Shown: in pieces, positions 6,112 to 41,254 of the stretch
Numbering within the stretch: the stretch's first letter is position 1
Layout of the letters: every line of letters begins with the position of its first letter
Source: Patescibacteria group bacterium
Lineage (GTDB): Bacteria; Patescibacteriota; Patescibacteriia; 2-12-FULL-57-11
Length of the DNA stretch: 64,000 nucleotides
Direction of reading: 5' to 3'
Assembly (NCBI GenBank): GCA_004297205.1
Contig: SCUL01000002.1
Span: forward strand, 77,156-141,155
Position numbers and translations under genes: made by a program
Notes under the pieces: model-generated
The model's database searches: none
What the model saw: the letters and a program-made list of their open reading frames with translations, nothing else
What the model was told of the DNA's origin: nothing

Positions 6112-6118
6112 AGATCCA

Positions 6119-6514
6119 TTAGGTCTTCATGCCGGCTTTGATGCGGCCGCTGCCCATCGTCTTGCGGACATTGCCGCGGACGGTGCGGGAGTTCGTCTTG
6201 GTGCGCTGGCCGCGCAACGGCAGGCGCTTGATGTGGCGGGTGCCGCGGTAGCTGCCGATTTCCTTGAGACGCTTGATGTTGGACATCACCTCGCGGCGCA
6301 GTTCGCCCTCCACGCGGTACTGTTTCTCGATGTGGTCGCGCAGCTTGTTGATCTCGTCCTCGGTCAGGGTCTGGACGCGCTTATTGCCGTCGATGCCGAC
6401 TTTCGCCAAGACGTCCTTGGCGCGCGTGGCGCCGACGCCATAGACATACTGCAGCGCGATGATGACGCGCTTGTTCTGGGGAAGAGTGACACCGGCGATG
6501 CGGGCGAGAGCCAT
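6119..6514 (-). CDS. rpsM: 30S ribosomal protein S13
   Basis: MALARIAGVTLPQNKRVIIALQYVYGVGATRAKDVL is the S13 N-terminus. Confidence 0.95.
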   Translation of the reverse strand: MALARIAGVTLPQNKRVIIALQYVYGVGATRAKDVLAKVGIDGNKRVQTLTEDEINKLRDHIEKQYRVEGELRREVMSNIKRLKEIGSYRGTRHIKRLPLRGQRTKTNSRTVRGNVRKTMGSGRIKAGMKT

Positions 6515-6530
6515 ATCAGGAAAAAGCGGC

Positions 6531-6644
6531 TTAGCCCTGCCGCTGTTTATGCTTGGCGATTTTGCAAATCACCACCAGCTTGCGGTTGCGGCGGATGACT
6601 TTGCAGTCGCGGCAGATTGGTTTGACCGACGAACGGACTTTCAT
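6531..6644 (-). CDS. rpmJ: 50S ribosomal protein L36 (38 aa)
   Basis: Below the ORF-track size cutoff. Reverse translation gives [37 protein letters not shown], canonical L36, between rpsM and infA. Confidence 0.85.
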
Positions 6645-6661
6645 GCGATAAAAAAATGGAC

Positions 6662-6892
6662 CTAAAACCTATATACGACCCGCCCTTTGGTGAGGTCGTA
6701 CGGCGTGAGTTCGACTTTGACCTGGTCGCCGGGCAGCAGGCGGATGCGGTTCATGCGCATCTTCCCCGACAGGTGACCAATGATGGTATGACCGTTTTCG
6801 AGAGTGATCTTGAAGGCGGCCGCCGGAAGCAGCTCCGTGACGGTGCCTTTCACCTCGATGAAGTCCTTAGACGGACTTTGCGCTTCACCCAT
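6662..6892 (-). CDS. infA: translation initiation factor IF-1
   Basis: [63 protein letters not shown] is the S1-like IF-1. Uses a TAG stop, which shows TAG is a genuine stop in this genome. Confidence 0.95.
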
Positions 6893-6956
6893 GTGCGGGA
6901 GAATCTAACACGACAGAAATGCTTGGGCAAGACGCCCAGGCCTCGAAACTGGGCAA

Positions 6957-6985
6957 ACTATACCTGGATGCCAAAAACCCGTCAA
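6957..6985 (-). promoter_or_regulatory. sigma70-type promoter upstream of infA (minus strand: TTGACG-17 nt-TATAGT)
   Basis: The reverse complement of 6957-6985 reads TTGACGggtttttggcatccaggTATAGT. A 6-bp hairpin (GCCCAG...CUGGGC) lies in the roughly 55-nt leader. Confidence 0.5.
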
Positions 6986-7028
6986 TAGAGCGGGTGGGGA
7001 CGGAAATCGGGGGCTGCATTGAGCGATT

Positions 7029-20932: not shown

Positions 20933-21382
20933 TTACGGTGATGAACGGAACAAACGCTCCACCTCGTCCACCCAGCGGACGGCGTCAGGATCCTGTCCCT
21001 CGACGCGGCTCGGAACGGGCGGAGCGGCGGTACCAATGGCTGCCGGAATGGCGGCGGCAGGCACCGGGGAGGCAAAAATCCGGTCGAAGACGGCCACCAG
21101 TCCGCGGTCGGCGGAAGAACGGACTTCTTCGGCGCCGAGCGCCAAACGGCCCCAGCCGATCACCAGCACGTCTTCGGCGCGCAGCGTGACCTCGTCCCAC
21201 GAGGCCATGCCGCGACGCATCGAGTCCGAGAGCGCGGCCAGCGGATGGAAATCCGCGACGGCAGTTGCGAGGCGGTACGGCGCGGCCGCGAGATCCGTCC
21301 GCAGGTCGGAAAAATCCCGCGCCTGCACCGAGGCGGGCGCGAGCGTCAGACAGAACAGGAGGATGGCGACCAGGCGCTTCAT
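20933..21382 (-). CDS. secreted hypothetical protein (signal peptide)
   Basis: MKRLVAILLFCLTLAPASVQA signal peptide. No homology recognised. Confidence 0.5.
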   Translation of the reverse strand: MKRLVAILLFCLTLAPASVQARDFSDLRTDLAAAPYRLATAVADFHPLAALSDSMRRGMASWDEVTLRAEDVLVIGWGRLALGAEEVRSSADRGLVAVFDRIFASPVPAAAIPAAIGTAAPPVPSRVEGQDPDAVRWVDEVERLFRSSP

Positions 21383-23184
21383 GGCTGCTGCGGGTCATCG
21401 AACGAGACGACTTCGCCCGGCGCGGGGCGGCCTCCCGCTTTCTGGAACGGCACCGGTGTGGCGGCGGGGATTGCGGACAGGGGGACGTTCTTGGCCGGTT
21501 CCGGCGGCGCGGACTCGACGGGAATTGCCGCCGCTTGCTTGCGCTCCTCTTTTACGATTTTGAAACAGTCGTCGCAGAAGTACGGCCGGCTCGGATCCGG
21601 CTGGAAGGTCAGCTGCATGGTTTTGCCGCAGCGCGCGCAGACCGCGTCATAGGCCTGCTTGCCCGGCTTCGGCGCGGCGGGCTTCGCGGCCGGTTTGGCG
21701 GCGGCAGCCGGGGCGGAGGCGGCCTTTGCGGGAGGCGGAGGCGCCACAGGCGTCGTGGGACGCGGCGCGGCAGGGCGGGGCGCCGGGGCGCGCAACGCGG
21801 GCGCGGCGGCTGCGACCACGAACCGCGGCGCCGCGGGCCGGGGCGCGGCGGCAGCCGGAGCCGCGGCCGATACGGTCGGTGCCGCGCCGAGGAATCCGGC
21901 CCAACGCAGGATCTTTTCCTCGACCACGGCGCGCGGCTGGGCGTAGCGCTCGCGGGACACCTTGATGACGCGCTCCGTGCTGCCGGTGCGCGCATTGATC
22001 GGCGGCAGCGTGTTGGCGGAAAAAATCTCCGAGGCCACGCCGTCGATCATCAATTTGATGTAGACCTCGAACTTCGTCAGGTTGGTCAAATCCTCCGGAA
22101 TGAAGCGCGGCGCGACTTCCTGCTCCAGGAAAAGGGCGTCCGCGGCGCCGACGCGGAAGAAAATCATCGTGCCGACGTTGCCGAAGACGGCCGGACGCAC
22201 GTAGTCCTCGTCGAGCTGTTCGATGTACTGGTGGGCGACGATCAGGTTGAGCCGGTATTTGCGGGCCTCGGACAGAATATTGGCGAAGCTGGCCGTGGCG
22301 AAATTCTGGAATTCGTCGACGTACAGGTAAAAATCGCGGCGCTCCTCCTCGGCCATGTCGACGCGCTCCATGACGGCGAGCTGCAGCTGGGTGATGAGCA
22401 TGCCGCCCAACAGGCGCGAGGAGTCTTCGCCGATGCGTCCCTTGGCCAGGTTTATGATCAGGATCTTTCCCTCGTCCATGATCTCCCGCATGTTGATCGT
22501 GGACTTCACTTGGGCGACGATGTTGCGGATGATGGTGGCCGCCAAAAACTGACCGACCTTGTTCTGGATCGGGGCGATGGCCTCGTTGCGGAAGCGGTCC
22601 TCCCAACGCGCGTATTCATCGACCCAGAAGGCCTTCACCACCGGATCCTTCAGTACGGAGACGACGCGCTTGCGGAATTCCTTGTCGACCAGGATGCGGT
22701 TGATGCCGAGCAGCGTGGAATCGGGATATTCCAGGAGCGACAGGATGCACTGGTTGAGGATGTGCTCCATGCGCGCGCTCCAGACGTCCGGCCAGATCTT
22801 CTTGAAGACGCCCATCAGCCCCTGCGCCACGAGCGGCCGGTTGGCTTCGTCCACGGCCTCGAGCAGGTTGAAGCCGATCGGATATTCGATGTCCGCGGGG
22901 TTGAAGTAGACGACGTCGTTGATGCGCTCCGGCGGGATGAAGTCGAGCAGGCGCTCCGCCGTGTCGCCGTGCGGGTCGACATAGGCCACGCCGTGGCCGG
23001 CGTTGATGTCGTTCAGGATCATGTTTTCGAGGAGCGTCGTCTTGCCCATGCCGGTTTTGCCGAGCACGTAGACGTGCCGGCGCCGGTCGTCCGTCTTGAT
23101 GCCGAACTTGCGCCGCGCGTTGCGGTAGTTGGTCTCGGCGAAGAGGTTGATCTCGCTCTCGTGGTCGTGCGGGTAGGACGCCAT
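21379..23184 (-). CDS. P-loop ATPase of the VirD4/TraG/TrwB coupling-protein or HerA/FtsK-like family, with Pro/Ala-rich linker and C-terminal CxxC...CxxC zinc ribbon
   Basis: Walker A VLGKTGMGKTT. ...YVDPHGD...VVYFNPAD...IGFNLLE resembles T4CP nucleotide-binding-domain motifs. Walker B FYLYVDEFQNF. C-terminal CARCGKT...FCDDCF. No TM segment in this protein. Confidence 0.65.
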   Translation of the reverse strand: MASYPHDHESEINLFAETNYRNARRKFGIKTDDRRRHVYVLGKTGMGKTTLLENMILNDINAGHGVAYVDPHGDTAERLLDFIPPERINDVVYFNPADIEYPIGFNLLEAVDEANRPLVAQGLMGVFKKIWPDVWSARMEHILNQCILSLLEYPDSTLLGINRILVDKEFRKRVVSVLKDPVVKAFWVDEYARWEDRFRNEAIAPIQNKVGQFLAATIIRNIVAQVKSTINMREIMDEGKILIINLAKGRIGEDSSRLLGGMLITQLQLAVMERVDMAEEERRDFYLYVDEFQNFATASFANILSEARKYRLNLIVAHQYIEQLDEDYVRPAVFGNVGTMIFFRVGAADALFLEQEVAPRFIPEDLTNLTKFEVYIKLMIDGVASEIFSANTLPPINARTGSTERVIKVSRERYAQPRAVVEEKILRWAGFLGAAPTVSAAAPAAAAPRPAAPRFVVAAAAPALRAPAPRPAAPRPTTPVAPPPPAKAASAPAAAAKPAAKPAAPKPGKQAYDAVCARCGKTMQLTFQPDPSRPYFCDDCFKIVKEERKQAAAIPVESAPPEPAKNVPLSAIPAATPVPFQKAGGRPAPGEVVSFDDPQQP

Positions 23185-23187
23185 AGT

Positions 23188-24669
23188 CTACGCGCCGGGC
23201 AGGTTCGCCGGGGGCTCCCCCGTCGCGGCGGTCGGGGCCTGCTTGGGGGTGAATACCGGCGGCCGCTCGACCGGCAGGCGGATCGGCGGTTCGGCGCGCT
23301 TGGATTCGGCCTTCTTCAGGGACGGCGTCTTCACCAGGAGCGACGGGAAGTGCCAGATCGAAGCGAGCTCCTCGGTGGACAGGATGTAGTGCTGGGCGCC
23401 GCGCCAGTTGGAACGGTACTTGTACGCCAGGAAGATCGACTTGATGCGCTCGTTCGTCGTCTTGTAGAACGTGCCGGACAGGTAGAAAAAGATCGGGTTG
23501 AGCTGCCAGAAATAGTCGTACTTCGTGGTGACGGAGCCCGCGAACCCGAGCTTGTTCATGTTCAGCGTCGTGAACTGCTGCAGCGCGCCGCGCACGAAGG
23601 AGATGATCGTGCCGGTGCGGAACTTCTTCTTCGGCGCGATGTAGATGAAACGAATCTTGGTGTGCAGGCCGATCTTGGACAGCTTCTGTTCGACGCGTTC
23701 CACGACGAACCGTTCGCCCGGCGAGAGGTAGAGCATCTGGGAACGCACGTCGTCCTTCTTCTGCACCGGCTTGGCGGACTCGCCGCCGACCAGTCCTTGC
23801 ACGCCCAAGTCGAGCGCGTGCAGCGGCAGGTCCATGGCTTTGTCGAGCATCGTCGCTTTGGGCGTGACCTTGGTGCCGATCAGTTTCTTGACCAGCTTCT
23901 CGCCCTTCTCCTGCCAGTCCTGCTTGGTCGTGGTCACGAGCATCTGCAGCCACACCTGCTCGCCCGGCTGCAGCATGGCCAACGACTCCAACAGTCCGGC
24001 CATGGGATCCTTGAACTCGCCGGAGACCGGGTCGGTGAAATCCGCATGGGTCTTGAGCGGGTAGTATTCCGGCTTGCTCAGCACGAACTCCGAACCGAAC
24101 AGGCCCCACTCCTTGTTCGGCCACGGCCACTTCTGGGGCGCGTTCAGCACGTAGTCCTCGACCTCGGTGATTTCCGCTTCCGGGTACTGCGCGTAGACGA
24201 TGGCTTCCACGAGGTCGCGGTATTTGGACCAGACGCGGATCAGGAACTGGACGTAGCCTTCGATGGAGACGATTTCGAAACTGAACACCGGGTGCATTTT
24301 GCCTTCCCAGTACTTTTCCTTGCGCGTGTGGGTCGAGTGCGCGCCCAAGAGGTGCGCGAAGATGTTTTCGACGGCCTTCGGCGTCTGTTCCGTGGACTTC
24401 GGCACGTCGATGGCCAGCAGCACCGGGTTCACGCTCTGCATGAACTTGAACTGCCGCTCGTTGATCCAGATCCACCAGAACCCGCGCAACATGACGATGA
24501 GCATGGGGATCCAGCCGCCGGCACGGAAAAGCTCCCACATGATGATCAAGGGGTGCTGCGCTCCGAGCCAATCCATCCAGACGAGAATGGCGGCAACGTC
24601 GATGGTGATCGACGGCATAGGCGCACATAGTATAACACATGGAAAACAAAGAGGGGCATGGTCTGCCAT
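23188..24669 (-). CDS. membrane protein (2 N-terminal TM helices plus about 400-aa soluble domain), co-operonic partner of the VirD4/HerA-like ATPase
   Basis: 3-nt gap to the ATPase gene. Lower local GC. Trp/Tyr/Lys-rich. Probable start is Met at about 24621 (MPSITID...). No family recognised. Confidence 0.55.
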   Translation of the reverse strand: MADHAPLCFPCVILCAPMPSITIDVAAILVWMDWLGAQHPLIIMWELFRAGGWIPMLIVMLRGFWWIWINERQFKFMQSVNPVLLAIDVPKSTEQTPKAVENIFAHLLGAHSTHTRKEKYWEGKMHPVFSFEIVSIEGYVQFLIRVWSKYRDLVEAIVYAQYPEAEITEVEDYVLNAPQKWPWPNKEWGLFGSEFVLSKPEYYPLKTHADFTDPVSGEFKDPMAGLLESLAMLQPGEQVWLQMLVTTTKQDWQEKGEKLVKKLIGTKVTPKATMLDKAMDLPLHALDLGVQGLVGGESAKPVQKKDDVRSQMLYLSPGERFVVERVEQKLSKIGLHTKIRFIYIAPKKKFRTGTIISFVRGALQQFTTLNMNKLGFAGSVTTKYDYFWQLNPIFFYLSGTFYKTTNERIKSIFLAYKYRSNWRGAQHYILSTEELASIWHFPSLLVKTPSLKKAESKRAEPPIRLPVERPPVFTPKQAPTAATGEPPANLPGA

Positions 24670-24691: not shown

Positions 24692-25588
24692 TTACCGCCG
24701 GGACGACAGCTTCTGCCAGGTGACGAGGAGCGGCGAAGCGATGAAAATCGAGGAATACGTGCCCGCCACGATGCCGATGAGCAGTGCCAGGATGAAGTTC
24801 CGGGTCGAGACGCCGCCGAACAGATAAACGGCCAGGAGCACCAGGAAGACGGTCAGCGAGGTATTGAGGGAGCGGACGAAGGTTTCGCGGACCGACTCGG
24901 CCACCACGTCCTCGAACGGCTGGCCGGCGCGGCGGCGGAGATTCTCCCGGATGCGGTCGAACACCACGATGGTGTCGTGGACCGAGAAGCCGAGCACGGT
25001 CAGCACCGCCGTCACGAACAGCACGTCGATTTCCACGCCAGCGAAATGACCGAGGGCGGCGAACACGCCGGTCGGGATGATCACGTCGTGGAGCAGGGCG
25101 ATGATGGCGACGATCCCGTACTTCCAGGAAGAGACCGGCTTGGAGACGGAGCGGAAGGCGAAAGCAATGTAGGCGACGATGGCCGCGAGCACGAGGAGCA
25201 TGCCGCGGATGGAGCGGGAGCGCAGCTCCGAGCCCACCGACGGACCGACCGTCTCGTAGGACTGCTGGGTCACGGAAGCGTCGTCGCCGGCACCGAGCGC
25301 GGTCAACACCTTCTGGCGGCTGGCGTCGTCCGTGGCCTGGAGGCGCAGGATGGCTTCATTGTCCCCTACCGGCTGGACGTGGACGGTGCCGACCCCGGCC
25401 TCCGTGGCGCGCCGTTCGATCTCCTGCACCGCCGGACGCGCCGCGAAGCGGACCTGCAGGAGCGCGCCGCCGGTGAAGTCGATGCCGAGTTTGAGCCCCC
25501 ACAGCGCGATGGCGCCGATCGAAGCCGCGACCATCACGGCGGACAGCGCGTACCAGATCTTGCGGGTGGCGATGACGTTGAACTTCAT
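24692..25588 (-). CDS. secF: protein translocase subunit SecF
   Basis: MKFNVIATRKIWYALSAVMV..., 6 TM helices, and the conserved FTGG motif region. Start ATG 25588. Confidence 0.9.
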   Translation of the reverse strand: MKFNVIATRKIWYALSAVMVAASIGAIALWGLKLGIDFTGGALLQVRFAARPAVQEIERRATEAGVGTVHVQPVGDNEAILRLQATDDASRQKVLTALGAGDDASVTQQSYETVGPSVGSELRSRSIRGMLLVLAAIVAYIAFAFRSVSKPVSSWKYGIVAIIALLHDVIIPTGVFAALGHFAGVEIDVLFVTAVLTVLGFSVHDTIVVFDRIRENLRRRAGQPFEDVVAESVRETFVRSLNTSLTVFLVLLAVYLFGGVSTRNFILALLIGIVAGTYSSIFIASPLLVTWQKLSSRR

Positions 25589-25598
25589 AGGGGGTGCG

Positions 25599-27350
25599 TC
25601 AGGAACGCTTGGCAACACCGAAGATCCACAAGTGCTTTTCCATCCAGCGGCCGGCCAGCGCCCGCAGGAAGGTACGGGTCACGATGATGGCCGTGAACAT
25701 GGACACCAGGATGCCGATGGCCAGCGTGACGGCGAAACCTTTGACGAGCGAGGTGCCCAGCCAGGCCAGGATGGCGCAGGTGATGAGCGAGGAGGCGTTG
25801 GAGTCGCGGATCGACAGCCAAGCGCGGCGGAAGCCTTCATCCATGGCGTCGCGGATGGCCTTCCCGCTCCGCAATTCCTCCTTCATGCGTTCGAAAATCA
25901 GGATGTTGGCGTCCACGGCCATGCCCAGCGACAAGATGAACCCGGCGATGCCGGCCAGGGTCAGCGTCACGCCGATCATCTTGAACACCGCCAAGGTCAG
26001 CGCGGCGTAGACGACGAGCGCCACCGTGGCCACGACGCCCAGGAAGCGGTAGATGACGAACATGAACAGCGCCACGACGGCGAAGCCGAGCAGCCCGGCC
26101 ATCAGCGACTTGGCGAGCGACTCCGCGCCGAGCGACGCGCCGACCGTCTGCTGGTTGACCAGCGTGATCGGCACCGGCAGGGCGCCGGCGTTCAGGTTGC
26201 GCACCATCTGCTTGGCTTCCGGAATGGTGTACCGGCCGGTGATGACGGCTTCGCCCACCAGGATTTCCTGCTGGACCACCGGATCCGACAGCAGCACGCC
26301 GTCCAGGAAGATGGCGACCGGTTTGCCGACGTTCCGTTTGGTGATTTCGCCGAACAGCTTCGTCCCCTCGTCGTTGAACTGAAGGCCGATCTGGACGACG
26401 CCGGTCTGTTGGTCGAACAGGACGTTGGCGCGGCGCAGATGGGCGCCGGTGAGTCCGCTGTTTTTCCACTGTTCAGGTGGCACGATGTCTGTCTCCGCCA
26501 GCTTCTTGAACAGGATGTGGCTGGCGCGGTACTCGGGTACGGTGGAAGTGGCCGTGGTGCCGTCGGACAGCTCGAGCTCCGGACCGGCCGCTTCGCGCTC
26601 CCCGGTCTTTTTGATGATGTGGTAGCCGAAGGCGGTCGCCACCGGCGTCTTGCTGATCTCGTCCACCTTCAACGCGGCCACGGCGGTTTCGAATTCGGGC
26701 ACGGTGGTGCCGGCGGTGAACCAGTCGAGGTCGCCGCCGTTGTCCTTGCTGCCCGGGTCGTCGGACAGTTCCTTGGCCAGCGCGGCAAAGTCGGCGCCGG
26801 GCTCCCGCACGCGCTTCAAGGCGTCCTGCGCTTTCTTCTTGGCTTCGGCGTCGCTGTCGGCAAGCTGTTTCTTTTCCTCGGCGGTCAGCGGGCGGGCCGG
26901 TTCCGTGCTGACTTCCTTGAACTCCAACAGCGGCGTTTCGCCGATCTGGCGGATGGCCTCATTCACGTCCAGGATGCCGGCCAGGTCCACGATCAGGCGG
27001 TACTTGTCGCCGACGATCGCGGTCTGCACCAACGGTTCGGACACGCCAAAGGCGTTGACGCGCCGCTCGATCACCTCGCGCAGACCATTGAGCTGTTCGC
27101 GGCGGTCGGCTTCCGGCACGCTCTGCATGTCGGCCTCGTAGACGAGGTGGGAGCCGCCTTGAAGGTCGAGACCGAGCCGGAAGGCCTTGGTCGGGAACTC
27201 CGGCAACGGACCGCGGATGCGGTTCCAGACGGAGGGATCCACGAACAGGCCGGCCAGCGCGCCGACAACGAGGAGCAAAAGCGCGACCCAGCGCAGGCGG
27301 GCCGCCGGGGCGCGGAACAGCATGCCGAGGGGGTTGGAGGGAGTGGCCAT
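25599..27350 (-). CDS. secD: protein translocase subunit SecD with an inserted parvulin-type (PpiC) peptidyl-prolyl isomerase domain in the periplasmic P1 region
   Basis: SecD TM and P1 motifs are present (...[28 protein letters not shown]...[13 protein letters not shown]...). An inserted segment of about 100 aa reads ...[63 protein letters not shown], the parvulin signature. Start ATG 27350. Confidence 0.85.
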
Positions 27351-27589
27351 AACGGGCGGAATGGTACCCGAGCCGAACCGGGAGGCGCAAGGGTCGTCCC
27401 GGCCGTCCCCTTGCCTTCCTCCGGGGTCTGTGGGCATGCTGGACCCAAGACCCCCACCGCGTGCGGCGTTGCACCCCCCTCTTGGCAACGCCGACGTCGC
27501 GGTGGCGGTCCCCCCTTAGCGGGACGTTGGTCGCTCGGACGTCCTTTACCCGTGTGTATCGTCCGCCCCCCCAGACGATGCCGGGCGCT

Positions 27590-27646
27590 GCGACCACCGC
27601 CAGTTCCAGGGTTCTCTCTTCCTCTGGTCCAGGCGGTCTTTTTTTC
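27590..27646 (+). terminator. candidate rho-independent terminator inside the 365-nt secD/lipoprotein divergent intergenic region
   Basis: An imperfect long hairpin (ACCGCCAG...CCTCTGGTCCAGGCGGT) is followed by CTTTTTTT. There is no upstream + strand CDS, which suggests an ncRNA end. Confidence 0.35.
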
Positions 27647-27715
27647 CTGCTTTCCATGCTTGGCAAAGTATCATGCGTATCGATACCATTCACGTGTAAC
27701 GCATGACGTAATCTT

Positions 27716-28219
27716 ATGAAAAAATATCTGCCGATCTTGGCCGCGGTCCTGTTGCTCGGTGCGGGCTGCGCGTCTCCCGCAACTCCGTCCACGAACGCGC
27801 CGCGGGCGGCAGCCGATCCGGAGCCGCGGTGCGATGCCCTCTTGACCCTCGCTGAAGCGCAGCAGGTTTCCGGTCTTGCCTATGCCGTGCGTGATGCGAA
27901 AGCAACGACGATGGGCACAACCGTCGTGACCACCTGCACTTTTTACACCAACGAACGGACCACGGGCATCAAGCCCTTTACCATCCTGACGCGCTCCGCC
28001 GCATCGACTGTGGAAGTCAATGAAATCTTCGAAGCGAGCAAAACCGCCACCTATACCGATGGACAGCCGATCTCCGGCCTCGGCGACCAGGCGCTGTGGT
28101 CTCCGTCTTTCGGCCAGCTGTCGGTTCTGCGAGGTCAAACGTGGTTGATTGTGACTGCAACCAATAACCGGGTTCTTGCAACGAAGATCGCCGAGGCCCT
28201 CGCCCCGAAGCTCAAGTAA
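27716..28219 (+). CDS. lipoprotein, hypothetical (167 aa)
   Basis: MKKYLPILAAVLLLGAGC signal peptide with a canonical lipobox. TTGGCA-18-TACCAT promoter-like sequence at about 27659-27690. Confidence 0.7.
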   Translation: MKKYLPILAAVLLLGAGCASPATPSTNAPRAAADPEPRCDALLTLAEAQQVSGLAYAVRDAKATTMGTTVVTTCTFYTNERTTGIKPFTILTRSAASTVEVNEIFEASKTATYTDGQPISGLGDQALWSPSFGQLSVLRGQTWLIVTATNNRVLATKIAEALAPKLK

Positions 28220-28844
28220 GCGGCACGTCTCCCGCGACTTCTCCAAAAAAATCCTGGTGACGTGACTCGACGTGAGCCGCAAGTTCTTCGAGGTAGGCGA
28301 GCAGTTCTGGTTGACCGGCCATCTTGCTGCGCTTCAGGGCAAGCACCTCCTCGAACGCCAGTCCGTGTTTCTTCCAGATGCGACCGCCGTCCGCGGTCGT
28401 CGCAAGCATCGGTTCCAACTTGTCGAGCGCGTAAATGAAGCGGCTTTCCGGATCCTCGCGGCGCTCGTAGGCGGCAATGGCGTCGTGGAGGTCGGGAAAT
28501 TCTGAAAACTCCCTGCGCAGCCGTTCCGCCGCTGCGTGTTCACTCGCCGATTTCTCGGCCCGGGCCTTGGCGTCCTTCGTGTAGGCGAAAACGTCGCCGG
28601 CGTAAACCTCAACAAGGTCATGAATAAGCGCGTACCGCAACACCTTGTCCTGATCCAGCGGCAGCTTCAATGTCGAGACCGTATACCACGCCAACATGGC
28701 CAGTGAATAGCTGTGCTCGACGTCGTTTTCCAAACGCTCCTCGCCGATGATGAAAATCTCGCGGATCACGCGCCGGTAGGCGGTGAGCATCGCATAGAAT
28801 CGCTGGAGCTCGGGGAGGCCGGCCATACGTTCAGGATGTGACAT
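28212..28844 (-). CDS. HD-domain phosphohydrolase (YfbR-like 5'-deoxynucleotidase family)
   Basis: H...HD motif (...VEHSYSLAMLAWY...ALIHDLVEVYAGD...). The track ORF is 5' extended across the PPC gene. Start is Met at 28844, or 28826. Confidence 0.7.
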   Translation of the reverse strand: MSHPERMAGLPELQRFYAMLTAYRRVIREIFIIGEERLENDVEHSYSLAMLAWYTVSTLKLPLDQDKVLRYALIHDLVEVYAGDVFAYTKDAKARAEKSASEHAAAERLRREFSEFPDLHDAIAAYERREDPESRFIYALDKLEPMLATTADGGRIWKKHGLAFEEVLALKRSKMAGQPELLAYLEELAAHVESRHQDFFGEVAGDVPLT

Positions 28845-29235
28845 GGAATTCGGGAAAACCCGTTGCCTCGTCATGAATCCGACGATACACGACGTCGTCG
28901 AAGATGCCGAACACAACCTCGGCCGTGGTATCCACAACGCAGCCGTCCTTGAGGTGGCCGCCGATAACGGCACCGTCCTTGTCCGAAAGGCTGACGTGGA
29001 TGTGACAGCCGTCCGCGGCGATCGTTCCGGTTCCGGAAACGATTTCGAGCGGTCCCGCGATCGTACGGACGATTTGCGCGTCCGGCGTGGCGCCGGCCAT
29101 CCGCAAAACCGCCGTGCGCACCCCGCCGACCAGGGACAACAACACGCCCGCGCCGATCCTTCGTTCACGGGCGATGCGTTCGATCTCTTCCTTCAGCAGT
29201 TGTCCCGGCCGGAGCCGGAAGGAAATCTGTTTCAT
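28831..29235 (-). CDS. PPC domain protein (DUF296; PCC/AT-hook-associated fold)
   Basis: 134 aa with G-rich beta-strand pattern ...GAGVLLSLVGGVRTAVLR...GPLEIVSGTGTIA...HIHVSL... Its ATG overlaps the TGA of upstream DUF1653 (ATGA). Confidence 0.7.
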   Translation of the reverse strand: MKQISFRLRPGQLLKEEIERIARERRIGAGVLLSLVGGVRTAVLRMAGATPDAQIVRTIAGPLEIVSGTGTIAADGCHIHVSLSDKDGAVIGGHLKDGCVVDTTAEVVFGIFDDVVYRRIHDEATGFPEFHVTS

Positions 29236-29498
29236 ACCTCACGCACCCAGGCGAACCGCGGGCCTTTGTACTCCCCCACTTCGACGTGCTCGAGGAACAT
29301 GCCGAGCGGTCGGATCCAATACAGACCCGGATCGATCAACGACTAGTACACCACGAACTCCTGCGCCGGGTCCTCGCTGCTGCGCCCGACGAACCGCGCA
29401 TGATACACGCCGCCTTTGTAGTGGCGGTAGATGCCGGGGCGGAACCGTTGCGCGGCGTCGGAGAGCGGCGGGAGATCGGGGGACATGCCGATGCTCAT
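29232..29498 (-). pseudogene. DUF1653 family gene interrupted by an in-frame TAG (amber) at 29343-29345
   Basis: Frame from ATG 29498 reads MSIGMSPDLPPLSDAAQRFRPGIYRHYKGGVYHARFVGRSSEDPAQEFVVY*SLIDPGLYWIRPLGMFLEHVEVGEYKGPRFAWVREV*. Both halves match DUF1653 (YRHYKGG.Y ... Y..RPL.MFLE). Both ends are coupled to neighbours by ATGA overlaps. Confidence 0.6.
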
Positions 29499-30493
29499 CT
29501 CAGTGCATTAATCCTATCCCTGCTCATTTCTATCTGTTTTTCTCTTTCTTTCTCGTTTCTTTCCCAGATAGCAGACAATGTTTCCTTCACGTGACCGATG
29601 TTTTGACGCTGCACGACGTTACTGATCACGGAACCGGACGGATATTCAACAAAAACCGTCAAGGTATTGAACACCACCTGCCCGGATCTTGGGGTGAACA
29701 ATTGTTTATGAAGCTCGGGCGAACGCATGTGTACTCGTTCCTCAACCGACCGAAACGCGGCTTTCAGGTCTTCCTGATTCCCTAAAATGTCGAGGTGTTT
29801 CACGGCTTTGCCCGTCAATGCCGTCCCTGAAACCATCGGCAGAATACGGCGTTCAAGCGCCCAGTCAATTACCTCACCGGCATCATCGGCGTTGTCTTTG
29901 TACACCATGATGGAAACACCCATTCTCGTGAATCCGTTTTTATCCGGTTTGTTGAATCCGGCATCGATCATGGCACGTATCGCCTCATCTCTTTTTTCCG
30001 CATATTTCTTAACACCGGAGATTCTGTTCTCTTTTTCGGGGTCAAAACTATTCACTTTCACGACGAAGGAAACGGGATACTCCCTTAATTTTTCAATTGC
30101 GGTCGCATTCAATAGAGCGCCGTTCGTAAATACCGTGACATGCAGATCCAGCTCTCTGGCTTTTTCGAGAAGCGGCCAAATCTCTTTATTTGAAAAGGGC
30201 TCGCCGTGGCCCGCCAACAACAGATTCGTAATCCCGAGATTCTTTGCTTCCTCCAACAATTCAACGCTTTTTGCGACATCAACCGATTGTTGCGTCTTTT
30301 CTCTGTACGCATCGGTAAAACAATACACGCAGTTCAAATTACACTTCTCTCGTGGAAAGGAAATACTCAGCTGCAGGGGCCTATCGCGTTCCCAGGCTCG
30401 TTCAATGTCCTCGATGTCAAAATCAATTCCTTTCAGCTTGATGGGCTCGGGTTTCTCTACCTCCGGACTCGGAAAATATTCTCCAGATCTCAT
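29495..30493 (-). CDS. radical SAM protein (CxxxCxxC; function unknown)
   Basis: CNLNCVYCF cluster and GHGEPF glycine-rich SAM motif. 332 aa. No SPASM or twitch Cys cluster seen. Local GC is clearly lower than surrounding genes. Confidence 0.75.
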   Translation of the reverse strand: MRSGEYFPSPEVEKPEPIKLKGIDFDIEDIERAWERDRPLQLSISFPREKCNLNCVYCFTDAYREKTQQSVDVAKSVELLEEAKNLGITNLLLAGHGEPFSNKEIWPLLEKARELDLHVTVFTNGALLNATAIEKLREYPVSFVVKVNSFDPEKENRISGVKKYAEKRDEAIRAMIDAGFNKPDKNGFTRMGVSIMVYKDNADDAGEVIDWALERRILPMVSGTALTGKAVKHLDILGNQEDLKAAFRSVEERVHMRSPELHKQLFTPRSGQVVFNTLTVFVEYPSGSVISNVVQRQNIGHVKETLSAIWERNEKEREKQIEMSRDRINALR

Positions 30494-30518
30494 ATGCCAT
30501 CATCTTACACTACGAGTT

Positions 30519-31445
30519 TCATACCGGAATCTTTACCTTGGCAAGCTGCGACTCACGGATCGACAGGCCGAGGAACAACGCGAGCAGCAGGACGGTGTTG
30601 AGCGGCGCGACCCAGAAGCCGAACTCGCGTCCGAAACTTTCCAGCACCATCAGGCCGCCAAGCATGCCGATGGAATACATGGCGCCGTTCTTGAGATAGG
30701 CGAACTTGGAAATGACATCGATGCCGCGCACCGTCACCTCGCGGACGACGAGCGCGCCGATGCCGTTGCCGATCAGGATGAGCACCACGGACAGCGTGAA
30801 GGCGAAGGCGCCGATCACGCCGTCGATGGAGAACGACGCGTCGAGCACTTCGAGGTACAGCAGTTTGCTCCAGGCGCTCAGATGCGCGGTGTGCAGTTTC
30901 TTCTCCGTCTCCTCGGCGTTGCGCCGGAAACCGTCGGTCACGAAGAAGGCCGTGGCGCCGATGGAGGCGGACAGCGCCAGGATGGGATTCTCGCGCACCG
31001 CCAGGGCGATGACCTTGGTGATGAAAATCGAGGCGAAGGCGTAGAACCAGACGCTCTGGCGGTGGATGAAGTGCTCGACAAAGAAGGCGTACTTCTTCTC
31101 CTCCATGAACAGCCAGCCGAGAAAAACGAAGACGAGGTAGACGCCGCCGGCCAGCAGCAACAACGGCTTGGAATGCTCAAGCGCCGCACTGACCTTGTCC
31201 GGTTCCGTGAACACCAGACGCATCAGCTCCGGCAGCGGGATGTTGGTATTGGCAAGCCAGACAATGAGGAACGGCAGCACGCCGCGCACCACGAACACGG
31301 CCAAGAGCAGCCCCCAGAACAGGAAAAACTTCCGGTACTTCTCCGGCAGGGTCTTCAGGACGTGGGCGTTGACGATGGCGTTGTCGACCGAGCTGATGAC
31401 CTCGAAGACGACCAGCCCGAAGATGACGACGAGGGATTGCAGCAT
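30519..31445 (-). CDS. DUF475 family integral membrane protein
   Basis: MLQSLVVIFGLVVFEVISSVDNAIV... N-terminus and ...SFSIDGVIGAFAFT... are typical of DUF475. About 8 TM helices. Confidence 0.65.
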   Translation of the reverse strand: MLQSLVVIFGLVVFEVISSVDNAIVNAHVLKTLPEKYRKFFLFWGLLLAVFVVRGVLPFLIVWLANTNIPLPELMRLVFTEPDKVSAALEHSKPLLLLAGGVYLVFVFLGWLFMEEKKYAFFVEHFIHRQSVWFYAFASIFITKVIALAVRENPILALSASIGATAFFVTDGFRRNAEETEKKLHTAHLSAWSKLLYLEVLDASFSIDGVIGAFAFTLSVVLILIGNGIGALVVREVTVRGIDVISKFAYLKNGAMYSIGMLGGLMVLESFGREFGFWVAPLNTVLLLALFLGLSIRESQLAKVKIPV

Positions 31446-31446
31446 A

Positions 31447-32022
31447 TCAGCCTTGTGCCTTCAGGATCTCGTCGAGCAGCACCGGCAGCTCGGTCACGCC
31501 ATCGTCCCCTGAGAAATGCCCCATCTCTTCGAGGATGATCGTTTTGGCACCGAGCTTATTACGCATCGCGACTTCGTTCTCCAACGGCACGTAGCGGTCG
31601 TTGTCGGAAAAAATCGCCTCGATCCGGCCTGCGGCGCGTTTTGCACGCTCGGTGTCGAGCGGCGTCCGCAACCACTCCGCGGCGATCGGCCGTTCTTCAT
31701 CGCTGTCCGCATTCGTCAGGTGGTTGAGGAACCCCGCCACGAGATAGGCGCCGCCGACGCGTTGATCGTCCGAAAGGTCGGCGAGGTACCGCAAGATTGC
31801 CTGACAGCCCATGCTGTGCCCGACCAAGATTGTCTCCTCGTCCGCCGTGCCGACAACGGTCGCAAGAAACGGCACCCAGGTGCCGATGCGCGGCGTGTCG
31901 GTCTCCGGCATCTCCGGTGCTTCCACGGCGAACCCGCGGGATTCGAGTTCCCGCTTCAACCACGGGAACCAGCCATGCTCAGGTGTTCCGCTCCAGCCGT
32001 GGATCAGGAAAGCGCGTTTCAT
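31447..32022 (-). CDS. alpha/beta hydrolase, RBBP9/YdeN-like serine hydrolase family
   Basis: About 190 aa, MKRAFLIHGWSGTPEHGWFPWL... with a GHSMG nucleophile motif, matching the family. Confidence 0.75.
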   Translation of the reverse strand: MKRAFLIHGWSGTPEHGWFPWLKRELESRGFAVEAPEMPETDTPRIGTWVPFLATVVGTADEETILVGHSMGCQAILRYLADLSDDQRVGGAYLVAGFLNHLTNADSDEERPIAAEWLRTPLDTERAKRAAGRIEAIFSDNDRYVPLENEVAMRNKLGAKTIILEEMGHFSGDDGVTELPVLLDEILKAQG

Positions 32023-32052
32023 ATGGCTTTCAGAATGACAGAAACGCGGAAA

Positions 32053-32081
32053 GAAAAAAAGACGCGTGCCTCCTGCACGCG
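32053..32081 (-). terminator. rho-independent terminator ending the SET/ASCH/HD operon
   Basis: On the minus strand: CGCGTGCAGGAGGCACGCG hairpin followed by TCTTTTTTTCTTT. Confidence 0.55.
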
Positions 32082-32124
32082 CGACGCCCGCCCGGCGACG
32101 GTCAGCGGCGCTGCGGAGCGCCCC

Positions 32125-32355
32125 TCACCTCTGGCGCAGGCGGTGCGACGTCTGCAGCTTCACGGAGCGTTTCGTCGACGGCGGAAGCCGCACCCGTTTC
32201 TCCGGTAGGTCGGTCTCGCACCGCGTGACCCGCTCGCGTGCCAGCTTCTTGCGCGCCCGCTGCGCCGCCAACGAACCGACGACGAAATCACGAACGTTCA
32301 TCTTCACCTCTTCTCTAAAACTAGCACACGGACGCGTGCCGTCAACACGATGCAA
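32125..32355 (-). CDS. small basic hypothetical protein (possible; may instead be 3' UTR)
   Basis: 76-aa ORF (plausible start MNVRDF...) between the SET gene and the terminator. No RBS or homology. Confidence 0.25.
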   Translation of the reverse strand: MHRVDGTRPCASFREEVKMNVRDFVVGSLAAQRARKKLARERVTRCETDLPEKRVRLPPSTKRSVKLQTSHRLRQR

Positions 32356-32378
32356 TACGGCGACGCCTGCCAGCCCCG

Positions 32379-32756
32379 TCAGGGCCTCCCCTGTTCGAAC
32401 TCTCCATAATCTTGCAGGAGCTCCTCTCCGGCCTCGATGTCTCTGACGGCGACAAGCCGATACTCGGGCGCACCGGCGTCAACCGTGATGTTCCCGACGT
32501 CCGCATGGTTGCAGAAGCGGATGTCATCGAACGCTAGATGCCAGGTGCCATCGTTGAAGTATCCGTAATGACGGATCTGTTTCTGGGAAAAAACATCCAG
32601 CTTCTGGAAATCGGCATCGGAAATATCAACGTCCAAATTCGAACTCATTTTGTACACCAACGAACCCTTGGCGACGCGTTGATCGGCAAAAAGACCGATG
32701 CCGTGTACGGGACTTTTCTCCAGTCGTGTTTTGACGAAAAGCATATGAGAGATCAC
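32379..32756 (-). CDS. SET domain protein (putative protein-lysine methyltransferase), 125 aa
   Basis: GIGLFA...KGSLV N-terminal SET motif. ...RFCNHADVGNITV... (the NHSCxPN equivalent). ...VAVRDIEAGEELLQDYGE... is post-SET-like. ATG overlaps the ASCH TGA. Confidence 0.65.
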   Translation of the reverse strand: MISHMLFVKTRLEKSPVHGIGLFADQRVAKGSLVYKMSSNLDVDISDADFQKLDVFSQKQIRHYGYFNDGTWHLAFDDIRFCNHADVGNITVDAGAPEYRLVAVRDIEAGEELLQDYGEFEQGRP

Positions 32757-33082
32757 GGCCCCCGCAACTCGAAGGTGATCATCTTCACGGGCGTGTCCAA
32801 CGTCACCCGGTCGCCGTAATACTTCTTGTATGCCTCGAACATCTTTTTGCTGCTTTCAAACCGCTCATGCCCGACAAAATCCGCATCCGTGATCCCGCCG
32901 AGGCGCTTCTCCTTGATGGCCGTGATACGCGCCGACGCAAACTCTTCTCCGGTGGACTTATTCACAAGCGAAAGCTCATCGCCGACACGGAGATCCTTGT
33001 CATCAAACATCCGCCAGGTGGATTTCTTCTCACCAGACAGCACCAACGGCACGAGATGGTCGAACAACTTGAGGGTCTTCAT
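32753..33082 (-). CDS. ASCH domain protein (PUA-like fold), 109 aa
   Basis: MKTLKLFDHLVPLVLSGEKKSTWR... is the typical ASCH N-terminus. ATG 33082 overlaps the HD gene TGA (ATGA). Confidence 0.7.
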   Translation of the reverse strand: MKTLKLFDHLVPLVLSGEKKSTWRMFDDKDLRVGDELSLVNKSTGEEFASARITAIKEKRLGGITDADFVGHERFESSKKMFEAYKKYYGDRVTLDTPVKMITFELRGP

Positions 33083-35029: not shown

Positions 35030-35605
35030 CCGCAGCTCGCGGTCGAATGCAAGAAAGTCCTTAAGGATTTCCGCGGTGGGTTTCTCCGCATCGAGGACTT
35101 TGGACTTCAAACCGTACCCCGTGGCGCAGCGGTTGAACTCGGCTTCGTACTTTGCGATGTAGTCGTCGAGGATGGCGCGGCGCTCCTCCGGCGTGGCTCC
35201 GTCCGGAAACAGCGCACGGTCGCGCTTGTGCTGGTCGGCTTCGATGCGGCGCAGCACGGTGTCCGTCGAAATACGCAGCAGCAAGATGGCGTCGAATCCG
35301 GCGATGCCGCTTCCGGCGATGGGAAAGACGTCACCGCGGACGATGTTGAGGTAATGGCCGTCGAATACAACGTCACCCGGGCGAGAGGTGATGTTCGTCA
35401 GCATTTCCTGAAACTTCCGGTCCGCATCGTCATTGTGGCTCAGTTTACGCAACGCGTCGTAATCACCGGGGATACCGAGGTAGTCCATGAAGGCGTGCGA
35501 CCCCTTGATGATTTCGAAACCAGGTGCCGCTTCTTTGATCGCATGCAGTAACGTCGTCTTCCCCGCCCCGTTGATGCCGCCGAGGTAGTACTTCATCATT
35601 GTCAT
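35024..35605 (-). CDS. P-loop NTPase / nucleotide-kinase-like protein
   Basis: Walker A GGINGAGKTT and lid-like R-rich segment. 193 aa. ATG overlaps the ppa stop. Confidence 0.6.
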   Translation of the reverse strand: MTMMKYYLGGINGAGKTTLLHAIKEAAPGFEIIKGSHAFMDYLGIPGDYDALRKLSHNDDADRKFQEMLTNITSRPGDVVFDGHYLNIVRGDVFPIAGSGIAGFDAILLLRISTDTVLRRIEADQHKRDRALFPDGATPEERRAILDDYIAKYEAEFNRCATGYGLKSKVLDAEKPTAEILKDFLAFDRELRK

Positions 35606-36060
35606 TCCCGCGGAGGCGGGGATCCAGAAATATCTGTGGACTGCTGCACGAGAGCAACTGCTTCATCCTTGCCGAAGAATTGACCAACCACGAGCTTTTT
35701 CCCTGGCAGGTGATCAAAAACGTGTGCAATGAAATTGCGAAGCTCGGTCTGAACACGCTCGTCAACAATGGGAGATTCTCCAGGAAGCGTTGCGAGTATC
35801 TTTGGATCGTTCTCACCCGTGTCGTCCATCTCGAACATGCCGATCGGTTCGACATCGATTGTCTCCCCGCTCTTGAGCGGCTTCGCCGTCAACACGAAGC
35901 AGTCGAGATTGTCTCCGTCGCCGCTCGTGGTGCCGATCACGAAGCCGTAGGCGTAGGGATAGGCCCGTGAGACCTCGACACTCTTACGGAACTCCAACGT
36001 CTTCTCATTGAAGATGTTCTTAGTCCGCGATCCGCGCTCGTTTTCGATGAAAACCTTCAT
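35602..36060 (-). CDS. ppa: inorganic pyrophosphatase (family I, short)
   Basis: ...YPYAYGFVIGTTSGDGDNLDCFVL... matches the YPxNYGFIPxT...DGDPLDVLV signature. Confidence 0.75.
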   Translation of the reverse strand: MKVFIENERGSRTKNIFNEKTLEFRKSVEVSRAYPYAYGFVIGTTSGDGDNLDCFVLTAKPLKSGETIDVEPIGMFEMDDTGENDPKILATLPGESPIVDERVQTELRNFIAHVFDHLPGKKLVVGQFFGKDEAVALVQQSTDISGSPPPRE

Positions 36061-36061
36061 G
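36032..36061. repeat. direct repeat copy A (covers the ppa start codon): CCGCGCTCGTTTTCGATGAAAACCTTCATG
   Basis: 28/30 identical to copy B at 37267-37296. Confidence 0.6.
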
Positions 36062-36503
36062 AAGGATCCTTCACTGCCGTTCGGGATGACAGGTAGGTGC
36101 GCACTCCTTCAAGAATGCCGCTGGTGAAATACTTCTCCAGATTCGAGGGGTCGACACGTAGCCACGCAGAACCTTCGTGTTCATGACTGAGCATCGGTTC
36201 ACCGCTTTCGTAATCACCGATGAAAAACACGTAGAGGATGGCGTCGCCATTTTTGGTCACATGGCGACCGATTGCCACAGGCGCAGGATGGAGACGATAC
36301 CGCACCTCACCGATCTCTTCCTGCACTTCGCGATTCAAGACGTCATGGAACGGCGCAGCGAGCTCATCGATATGGATGCGCCCGCCCGGAAAATCGTAGA
36401 AACCCGAATACTCACCGGTGTTTCTGGCAAGCAGGCCGAGCACCTCGTCGCCGCGGCGCAAGATGAGTTTCAACGAGACCCAATATTTTGCTTTCTCGGC
36501 CAT
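36057..36503 (-). CDS. Nudix hydrolase
   Basis: Nudix box GGRIHIDELAAPFHDVLNREVQEEIGE. True start ATG 36503 (MAEKAKYW...); the track ORF is 5' extended. Confidence 0.8.
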   Translation of the reverse strand: MAEKAKYWVSLKLILRRGDEVLGLLARNTGEYSGFYDFPGGRIHIDELAAPFHDVLNREVQEEIGEVRYRLHPAPVAIGRHVTKNGDAILYVFFIGDYESGEPMLSHEHEGSAWLRVDPSNLEKYFTSGILEGVRTYLSSRTAVKDPS

Positions 36504-36622
36504 AGATGTCAGGAATACTACCTGGAGGTGCGGGGAATTGCACCCCGGGCAGCCATCCTGGCAAGGAAAGCGCCGCGCCTGCCACCCCCAGGTTCCTTCA
36601 TCGTAGCCCTGAACCGGGACAT

Positions 36623-36651
36623 TGACCGGCCACACACTTTTCTGCTATTGT
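36623..36651 (+). promoter_or_regulatory. sigma70-like promoter (TTGACC-17-TATTGT) driving a short + strand transcript with no ORF
   Basis: -35 at 36623-36628 and -10 at 36646-36651 in an otherwise gene-free 225-nt gap. Confidence 0.35.
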
Positions 36652-36657
36652 CAAGAG

Positions 36658-36720
36658 GTCCTGGCAAGGATTGCACCGTACGCGAGCACAAACCGCCCTA
36701 CATGGGGGCGGTTTGTTTTT
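36658..36720 (+). ncRNA. candidate small RNA of about 60 nt (promoter plus intrinsic terminator, no ORF)
   Basis: The predicted TSS is about 6 nt downstream of the -10. The transcript ggtcctggcaaggattgcaccgtacgcgagcac ends in the AAACCGCCCtacatGGGGGCGGTTT-GTTTTT terminator. It contains motifs (TCCTGGCAAGGA, TTGCACC) that repeat 60-100 nt upstream. Confidence 0.3.
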
Positions 36721-36721
36721 G
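36688..36721 (+). terminator. rho-independent terminator
   Basis: AAACCGCCC-tacat-GGGGGCGGTTT followed by GTTTTTG. Confidence 0.6.
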
Positions 36722-36730
36722 AAGACAGAT

Positions 36731-37243
36731 TTAGGCCTCTATTGCCGTTTTTACACGTTCGACAACCTCGTCAGGTGAAAGGTCTTCCACGTCGATGATA
36801 GTTGCATGCGGTCGTTTTGCCTTCAGCTCATTCATCTCGTTCCAAAAACGTTCGCACTTCTCCGGCGTCAATAGACCATCTTCTCTGTATCCGCGATCAG
36901 CCGCGCGTTTCAAAACAACATCCTTGCTTGCCCAAAGAATGACTTCCGTCACATGCGCGTTCCGCTGCTTGGCGAGCGCGATCATGCGATCAAGTCGCGT
37001 CTCATCGAACATCATTTTTTCCACGATTACATCATGACCGGTCTGCATGTAGGCGTCGATCATCGCCAGCACGAGCAAAAAAGAAAACCGGTTACTTTCA
37101 TCTGCGTGTTCTCTGTATCCACTGATCTGTCTGCGAATGGCATCGATGTCAACAAGAAGCGAAAGCGGCATCGTCTGATGCAGAGCGGATGCCACGGTAC
37201 TCTTTCCTACGCCACAAGGCCCGTTGATGATCACGAGATTCAT
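36731..37243 (-). CDS. P-loop kinase-like protein (chloramphenicol-phosphotransferase / AAA_33-like fold)
   Basis: MNLVIINGPCGVGKSTVASAL Walker A at the extreme N-terminus. 170 aa. Lower GC (about 50%). Confidence 0.65.
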   Translation of the reverse strand: MNLVIINGPCGVGKSTVASALHQTMPLSLLVDIDAIRRQISGYREHADESNRFSFLLVLAMIDAYMQTGHDVIVEKMMFDETRLDRMIALAKQRNAHVTEVILWASKDVVLKRAADRGYREDGLLTPEKCERFWNEMNELKAKRPHATIIDVEDLSPDEVVERVKTAIEA

Positions 37244-37266
37244 ATAGCCCCAGCTTCTATCACGAC

Positions 37267-37296
37267 CCGCGTTCTTTTTCGATGAAAACCTTCATG
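37267..37296. repeat. direct repeat copy B: CCGCGTTCTTTTTCGATGAAAACCTTCATG, encoding a remnant MKVFIEKERGS* mini-ORF (37260..37295, minus)
   Basis: Duplicates the first 11 codons of ppa. Together with copy A it brackets the 1.2-kb Nudix / sRNA / P-loop kinase segment. Confidence 0.6.
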
Positions 37297-37324
37297 TCTT
37301 TCTGGACTCCCACGGGAATGACCG

Positions 37325-37951
37325 TTACCTGTTCGGCAAAGGAATGACTGTCGCACCGTTGCGATAGGCCTTCATGAACCGTTCCACGGGAACGCGGACG
37401 GAGGGTCGAGGAGGCAGTCCAGGGTCGTGGAGCAGAAGTTCGCCGCCATCGACGCCGTACAGGAGGACCGAGTGACCAATGCCTCTTTCCCTTTCATGCA
37501 GCACGCCAGAATCCACGAAGGCGATCACATAATGCGCTGCAAGAATATCTTTCCAATCGCTTGCGGAAGGATTCCGACGCTCCACCAGCTGCGCCTCGAC
37601 CATCCGCTGAGCGTCGCGCATTTCTTTTTCAAAACCCGGACTTGCATGCGCCTCCTGGTCGTCGACCCATGCCACATCACCGTGAAAGTAGCTCAGCAGG
37701 TAGGCACGTCCTTCACGGCAAAAGCGACCGTAATCGAAATCCGTCCAATAGCGCGTGCCGGGAAACAGCGTGTTCAATTCAATGATGCTCCGCGCAGGCC
37801 ACGTGTACAGGTCTTTCTGGAATCCCGTGATTGCGTCGGCCTCCGCCCAGGATATCGGGCGACCGATCGTTTCACCGAACATCCGAATGCAGGCCTGCAA
37901 ACAATGCAGGTCGTCCGACAGATTCCCGATGAAGATTGGTTCACGCGCCAT
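37325..37951 (-). CDS. hypothetical protein, possible papain-like (C39-like) cysteine peptidase fold
   Basis: Cys near the N-terminus (LHCLQAC), later GHSVLLYG and HDP, consistent with a Cys-His-Asp triad order. Weak assignment. Lower GC. Confidence 0.4.
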   Translation of the reverse strand: MAREPIFIGNLSDDLHCLQACIRMFGETIGRPISWAEADAITGFQKDLYTWPARSIIELNTLFPGTRYWTDFDYGRFCREGRAYLLSYFHGDVAWVDDQEAHASPGFEKEMRDAQRMVEAQLVERRNPSASDWKDILAAHYVIAFVDSGVLHERERGIGHSVLLYGVDGGELLLHDPGLPPRPSVRVPVERFMKAYRNGATVIPLPNR

Positions 37952-38382: not shown

Positions 38383-41181
<2,799 letters not shown>

Positions 41182-41254
41182 ACGGAACGGGGAAATCCTA
41201 CGGGAAAAAGCAAAACAAAACAAGGCCTCCCCCTGTGGCAGCATGGTTCTGAAA

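Follow-up and report, generated by a model that had tools for sequence, protein, structure and literature searches.

The 64,000-nucleotide stretch of DNA analysed here (hereafter the window), from contig SCUL01000002.1 of the Patescibacteria group bacterium assembly GCA_004297205.1, carries on its minus strand, between positions 28212 and 32022, a co-directional array of small genes, and within this array lies a gene of the DUF1653 family whose reading frame is interrupted by an in-frame TAG codon (Table 1). An earlier note on this DNA, made from the sequence alone, had described four of the genes, encoding a radical S-adenosylmethionine (SAM) protein, DUF1653, a PPC/DUF296 protein and an HD hydrolase, as an operon joined by stop-to-start overlaps. 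All four families were confirmed by Pfam, and their order on the minus strand stands as described, but the overlap does not run throughout: ATGA overlaps are present at two of the three junctions (radical SAM/DUF1653 and DUF1653/PPC), whereas the PPC and HD genes are separated by a 4-nt gap.

The DUF1653 frame, with a single internal TAG between its ATG and TGA, was found as the note had given it, and the homology to DUF1653 was supported by a profile search, in which the match to PF07866 spans the stop at 62.1 bits against a gathering threshold of 23.5 (E 6e-17, profile positions 1-61 of 62). The frame is also homologous to the uncharacterised structure 3BE3 (E 3e-8); the family is without known function and is scarcely mentioned in the literature searched. 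Whereas the homologues retrieved are all intact, the window copy provides no uninterrupted frame for the whole domain, being broken at codon 52. Its intact orthologues measure 83-85 aa and are 72-85% identical, and 30 of 30 aligned homologues are without interruption. At the position of the TAG, Gln is found in the five closest homologues, and in a codon alignment the two nearest orthologous loci, L004 (GCA_964648865.1, protein 85% identical) and L007 (GCA_041643055.1, 75% identical), both carry CAG, so that the change from CAG to TAG is explained by one C-to-T transition. Neither a frameshift nor a second stop is present in the frame, and with L007 as the outgroup the window protein has two private amino-acid replacements (plus the stop) as against five in L004; with so little other damage, the inactivation would be very recent. 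The predicted product is cut from 84-88 aa to 51 aa, or to 47 aa if translation begins at the second ATG, and the family-invariant residues W61, R63, P64, F68, R81 and F82 fall beyond the TAG. Given that these residues are missing from the truncated product, it is reasonable to infer that DUF1653 function has been lost by truncation. The view of the gene as a very recent pseudogene is thus strengthened by the CAG of the orthologues, by the otherwise undamaged frame, by the lack of any excess of private changes and by the use of TAG as a working stop, described below.

At 84 aa, the closest DUF1653 orthologue matches a start at the second ATG (29486), in which case the ATGA overlap between the radical SAM and DUF1653 genes may be incidental. 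For the DUF1653 gene of the window no NCBI protein accession exists, and TAK04705, TAK04706 and TAK04707 run consecutively. The 51-aa DUF1653 fragment (29346-29498) sits in a 90%-identity database cluster together with 1208-aa proteins; BLASTP detected no similarity between the fragment and these cluster members, and kinship was rejected in favour of a clustering artefact.

The note had taken TAG as a real stop from the termination of infA. This was confirmed, and two further genes with complete C-terminal domains point the same way: in a ClpB-like protein the TAG lies 15 residues beyond a complete D2-small domain, and in a T2SSE ATPase it lies 4 residues beyond a complete profile match. TAG terminates 6 of the 61 predicted genes (codon-usage-based gene set) and is the rarest stop in the window. 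A scan for all in-frame stops with open, coding-like sequence on either side returned, besides 29343-29345, only two TAG codons on the gene-carrying strand. That at 23188-23190 divides a DUF8128-like from a TrwB-like gene, and that at 54230-54232 divides the ClpB-like gene from an MraY-like gene; both separate distinct neighbours, and the DUF8128-like and TrwB-like genes are also separate in L004. The other TAG matches of the scan lie on the strand opposite to predicted genes. Pyrrolysine decoding or reassignment of the code was considered and rejected, since TAG terminates complete genes. No tRNA genes were found in the 64-kb window.

To see whether the four genes are associated elsewhere, 85 DUF1653 loci were searched by phmmer with the window radical SAM, PPC and HD proteins; 5 of the loci belong to close relatives and 80 are metagenomic, and they were taken with flanks of up to 5-8 kb. 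Conserved pairs of radical SAM and DUF1653 genes, which the note had proposed to look for, were found at 0 of the 85 loci, and PPC was likewise beside DUF1653 at 0 of 85. The HD gene accompanies DUF1653 in the closest lineage (L004-L006) alone, and there the two directly abut. From the other side, DUF1653, PPC and HD genes were all absent near the relatives of the radical SAM gene at L002, L003, L009 and L010. With L004 and L007 the window shares, by tblastn, a collinear order from secA (38383-41244) to secD, secF and the DUF8128 and TrwB genes. The complement of small genes lying between secA and secD, by contrast, changes from one genome to another: it includes NUDIX, PPase, ASCH, SET, TerC, DUF1653 and HD genes, to which Ham1, Maf, HIT, NTPase and methyltransferase genes are added in the relatives. 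The radical SAM gene is absent from L004 and L007, the two relatives compared by synteny. A cluster of radical SAM, DUF1653, PPC and HD genes recurring elsewhere was not encountered, and on these comparisons the four-gene arrangement is a lineage-specific juxtaposition, not a conserved module; the DUF1653-HD pairing is, by the same comparisons, the sole ancestral one, at least for the window and L004. The tight co-directional packing, moreover, continues upstream of the radical SAM gene through the TerC and Ser-hydrolase genes, so that the four genes do not form a self-contained block. The TerC protein is 90% identical to that of L007 and is encoded by a native gene.

Gene turnover seems to be common throughout the secA-secD interval. 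Minus-strand genes at 32379-32756 and 35602-37951 of the window, including a SET-domain gene and genes near NUDIX and PPase, have a GC of 0.50-0.57 and a GC at third codon positions (GC3) of 0.56-0.65, below the genome GC. In L004 a 346-aa protein (L004:5169-6209), with neither a Pfam match nor a homologue in the window, is encoded upstream of DUF1653; it was tried as a divergent radical SAM protein and rejected, as phmmer found no similarity to that of the window.

The radical SAM gene stands apart from its surroundings in composition, as the note had observed. Its GC is 0.47 (45-52%) compared with approximately 60-65% in the flanks, approximately 0.64 for the neighbouring genes and 63% for the window overall, and its GC3 is 0.53 compared with approximately 0.85 for its neighbours; as an outlier in both, the gene appears to have been acquired recently by horizontal transfer. 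It is also rare. An index search of 5.8 billion proteins returned only the protein itself above 32% identity, and among 1.84 billion representatives, scanned exhaustively with HMMER, 8 proteins reached E<=1e-30; the loci of its relatives were retrieved with a 4-sequence alignment. Its clade comprises P0066, encoded in L009 (47-48% identical), the protein of L010 (45%) and the fragments P0068 and P0138. P0067, P0069, P0070, P0071 and P0072 come next, at 27-36% identity; they possess SPASM/twitch cysteines, some of them matching PF13186, and L002 and L003 likewise hold more distant relatives than L009 and L010. On viral contigs only core matches of 29-30% were obtained, and no close phage relative was found. 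In L009 (6040-7977) and L010 (5986-8002) the radical SAM domain continues into a fused C-terminal extension of approximately 320 aa, which has a high content of Lys, Glu and Asn and matches nothing in Pfam; the L010 fusion is split by a frameshift into open reading frames at 5986-7659 and 7649-8002.

Several observations concern the two loci with the fusion. Directly downstream of it in L009 (8185-10070), genes encoding 204 and 424 aa overlap each other; by eye they resemble an AbiEi/AbiEii pair of antitoxin and nucleotidyltransferase toxin. The YchF proteins of L009 (3093-4157) and L010 (10195-11259) are 75% identical, though the two metagenome-assembled genomes (MAGs) are labelled Gammaproteobacteria and Bacillota; both loci are low in GC and have a gene content like that of small genomes. 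At least one of the two taxonomic labels is probably wrong.

Membership of the radical SAM superfamily is clear from the PF04055 match (77.8 bits against a threshold of 29.5), from the partial (beta/alpha)6 TIM-barrel fold and from the cysteines of the protein, which number exactly three, C51, C55 and C58 of CNLNCVYC, and constitute the CX3CX2C site of the SAM-cleaving [4Fe-4S] cluster. The protein shares descent or fold with the SPASM enzymes; however, in an alignment the cysteines of the SPASM/twitch auxiliary clusters are lost from the window protein, P0066 and P0138, the window protein ends ahead of the final CxxCxxxxxC block of its relatives, and the SPASM model PF13186 gives no match to it. 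It thus differs from SkfB, SuiB, anSME, CteB and PqqE, and from the twitch enzymes MoaA and BtrN, and in the absence of any cysteine outside CX3CX2C it cannot bind auxiliary clusters. The TIGRFAM/NCBIfam search suggested by the note did not yield a subfamily: 55 families matched, all far below cutoff, with the MoaA, PqqE and tungsten-cofactor maturase equivalogs at 50-66 bits against cutoffs of 231-381; the best of the equivalogs, the tungsten-cofactor maturase, reached 66 bits where the cutoff is 380. Labels from PADLOC and PHROGs were rejected, their matches being confined to the generic radical SAM core. Ahead of its cluster motif the window protein has only approximately 45 residues, a stretch too short to hold a leader-binding domain of the RRE/PqqD type, and no precursor peptide gene is evident beside it. 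Nor does it belong with viperin and the prokaryotic pVip proteins: its NF038283 score is 52 bits where the cutoff is 180 (profile positions 10-131 of 281), its PADLOC match covers profile positions 8-153 of 257, the C-terminal nucleotide-binding part is unmatched, and neither a kinase nor a defence context accompanies the gene. We infer from sequence that it is most likely a SPASM/twitch-descended generator of the 5'-deoxyadenosyl radical with a single cluster, acting on a small molecule in preference to a leader-dependent peptide. A bolder proposal, and a doubtful one, is that its clade (P0066, L009, L010, P0068 and P0138) might constitute an undescribed class of SPASM-descended enzymes that have dispensed with auxiliary clusters, are sometimes fused to the helical extension of approximately 320 aa, move horizontally among uncultured bacteria with small genomes and act on a nucleotide or other small molecule, possibly in defence (compare the apparent AbiEi/AbiEii pair of L009).

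The remaining two genes of the four are well-recognized family members. The PPC protein matches PF03479 at 99.8 bits (threshold 25) and, at E<=1e-10, has 347 homologues with 60-83% identity in Moran-, Uhr-, Nomura- and Wildermuthbacteria; judged by these matches it is a common native gene of Patescibacteria, encoding one of the commonest small proteins there. Elsewhere its place is after secA and ahead of a methyltransferase gene, not beside DUF1653 or HD. The HD protein matches PF13023 at 105.5 bits (threshold 22.5) and PF12917 at 37 bits, and shows the metal-binding H...HD...D motif (VEHSY, IHDLVE and AGD, with H54, H85, D86 and D94 invariant in the alignment). In these matches and this motif it is like the YfbR-like 5'-deoxynucleotidases, but with 19 bits against a cutoff of 122 for the YfbR equivalog NF003009 the likeness is one of family resemblance only. 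It is 71% identical to the orthologue in L004/L005, whose N-terminus aligns with ATG 28826. The NCBI call TAK04705.1, which starts at 28874, has 16 extra N-terminal residues that are absent from the orthologues and would overlap PPC by 44 nt; this start is probably a mis-call, 16 codons too long.

Table 1. Features of the array and of its convergent neighbour (positions in the window)
Feature	Position	Strand	Remarks
Radical SAM gene	30493..29495	-	332 aa; CNLNCVYC, GHGEPF; NCBI TAK04707.1
DUF1653 putative pseudogene	ATG 29498 to TGA 29232	-	88 codons, or 84 from ATG 29486
In-frame TAG of DUF1653	29345..29343	-	codon 52
PPC/DUF296 gene	29235..28831	-	134 aa; TAK04706.1, annotated 'DNA-binding protein'
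HD_3 / YfbR-like phosphohydrolase gene	28826..28212	-	204 aa; PF13023; NCBI TAK04705.1 (220-aa call)
TerC/DUF475 membrane protein gene	31445..30519	-	PF04332 + PF03741; 25-nt gap before radical SAM gene
Ser-hydrolase gene	32022..31447	-	PF06821; 1-nt gap before TerC gene
Convergent open reading frame	27716..28219	+	167 aa; lipoprotein-like signal LLGAGC; without Pfam match; called as gene in Logan contig

As to the limits of the array, a single strong terminator-like hairpin at 32082..32062 lies just upstream of the Ser-hydrolase gene, with which the co-directional series probably begins, and the convergent frame closes the array at the other end, its 3' end overlapping the HD stop by 8 nt. 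A scan for sigma-70 promoters gave 2 sites against 1.7 expected, and an Rfam scan of 27000-33000 gave one sub-threshold chance match and nothing else. Elsewhere in the window, the region 21379-24669 encodes the DUF8128-like protein (493 aa, TAG-terminated) and the TrwB/VirD4-type coupling-protein-like ATPase (601 aa, with a treble-clef zinc finger), which share a frame, lie 3 nt apart and are, as a pair, 81-89% identical in L004. An open reading frame of 795 aa on the plus strand (25332-27719), antisense to secD, is a shadow frame of a high-GC gene and not a real gene.

The reading favoured here, to which a probability of roughly 0.8 is given, is that the TAG is a recent nonsense mutation and that the four genes are unrelated neighbours, the radical SAM gene having been acquired horizontally. 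Several points weigh against it. Conservation continues in frame past the TAG with the family-invariant residues all intact, and a frame intact but for the TAG would fit equally with read-through or with a suppressor tRNA; TAG is the rarest stop here, and the search for tRNA genes covered 64 kb of an 856-kb genome. An in-frame TTG at 29339 could also permit a separate C-terminal piece of 35 aa. The TAG was judged from assemblies, of which the second, from Logan, may use the MAG's own reads and so is not an independent sample, and co-occurrence was scored by single-sequence phmmer within approximately 5 kb at loci many of which are short contigs. If DUF1653 were still functional, either by read-through of the TAG (through a suppressor tRNA or as a programmed event) or as two polypeptides of which the second is initiated at TTG 29339, these features of the frame would be expected. 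However, TAG terminates the complete ClpB-like, T2SSE and infA genes, the other same-strand TAG sites separate distinct adjacent genes, the window is without a tRNA, the orthologues encode plain Gln and the base that follows the TAG is a T. In E. coli, T after a stop codon makes for efficient termination. A functional DUF1653 is thus highly improbable, and the note's own view that nothing in the sequence indicates read-through is upheld.

The second possibility raised by the note, a sequencing or consensus error in a gene that is intact (CAG) in the organism, draws on the same single-base distance from the orthologues and the otherwise perfect frame, and on the source, a MAG from a lineage seen in one sample only. 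The Logan contig SRR8426588_388804 (L001, 4053 bp) is nonetheless 100% identical to window positions 26730-30782, TAG included, and its gene caller also yields the 51-aa fragment. The same base in an assembly made by a different assembler, over 4053 bp without a mismatch, excludes an artefact specific to one assembler, though not an error shared through the same reads. Consensus substitution errors are also rare at normal Illumina coverage, and NCBI likewise has no protein accession at this gene. The error explanation is weakened by the second assembly and, retaining some force if the reads were shared, may be regarded as very unlikely. It is likewise very unlikely that the four genes form a functional module, in which the radical SAM enzyme would modify, for example, a nucleotide then processed by the HD protein, in the manner of viperin. 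Among the other genomes examined, none has the four together; by its composition the radical SAM gene is foreign, whereas DUF1653, PPC and HD are native; one of the supposed partners, DUF1653, is itself inactivated; the matches to viperin fall far below cutoff and are limited to the generic core; and the tight packing continues into the unrelated terC and hydrolase genes. The note's operon of a radical SAM enzyme with small partners is not supported, on three grounds, namely the separation of the four genes elsewhere, the foreign composition of the first of them and the junction that has no overlap.

If the TAG is a recent nonsense mutation among unrelated neighbours, the history of the locus may be sketched as follows. 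In a high-GC genome of the Patescibacteria, or candidate phyla radiation (CPR), small unrelated genes would have come to be packed end to end between secA and secDF; such packing is usual in reduced CPR genomes. HD_3 would be the ancestral neighbour of DUF1653, and PPC, a common CPR gene, would have landed between the two. The radical SAM gene would have been inserted by recent horizontal transfer between terC and DUF1653, and its product would act independently of the three downstream genes. A C-to-T transition turning CAG (Gln52) into TAG would have made of DUF1653 a very young pseudogene.

The nonsense mutation itself may be a routine instance of decay, or of variation between strains, such as MAGs show, and its use is mainly that of a note for annotation. 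ATGA overlaps in reduced CPR genomes are no evidence of functional coupling. A modest wider interest attaches to the rare radical SAM clade without SPASM cysteines, which, if characterised, would offer one more example of SPASM/twitch evolution following the loss of auxiliary clusters.

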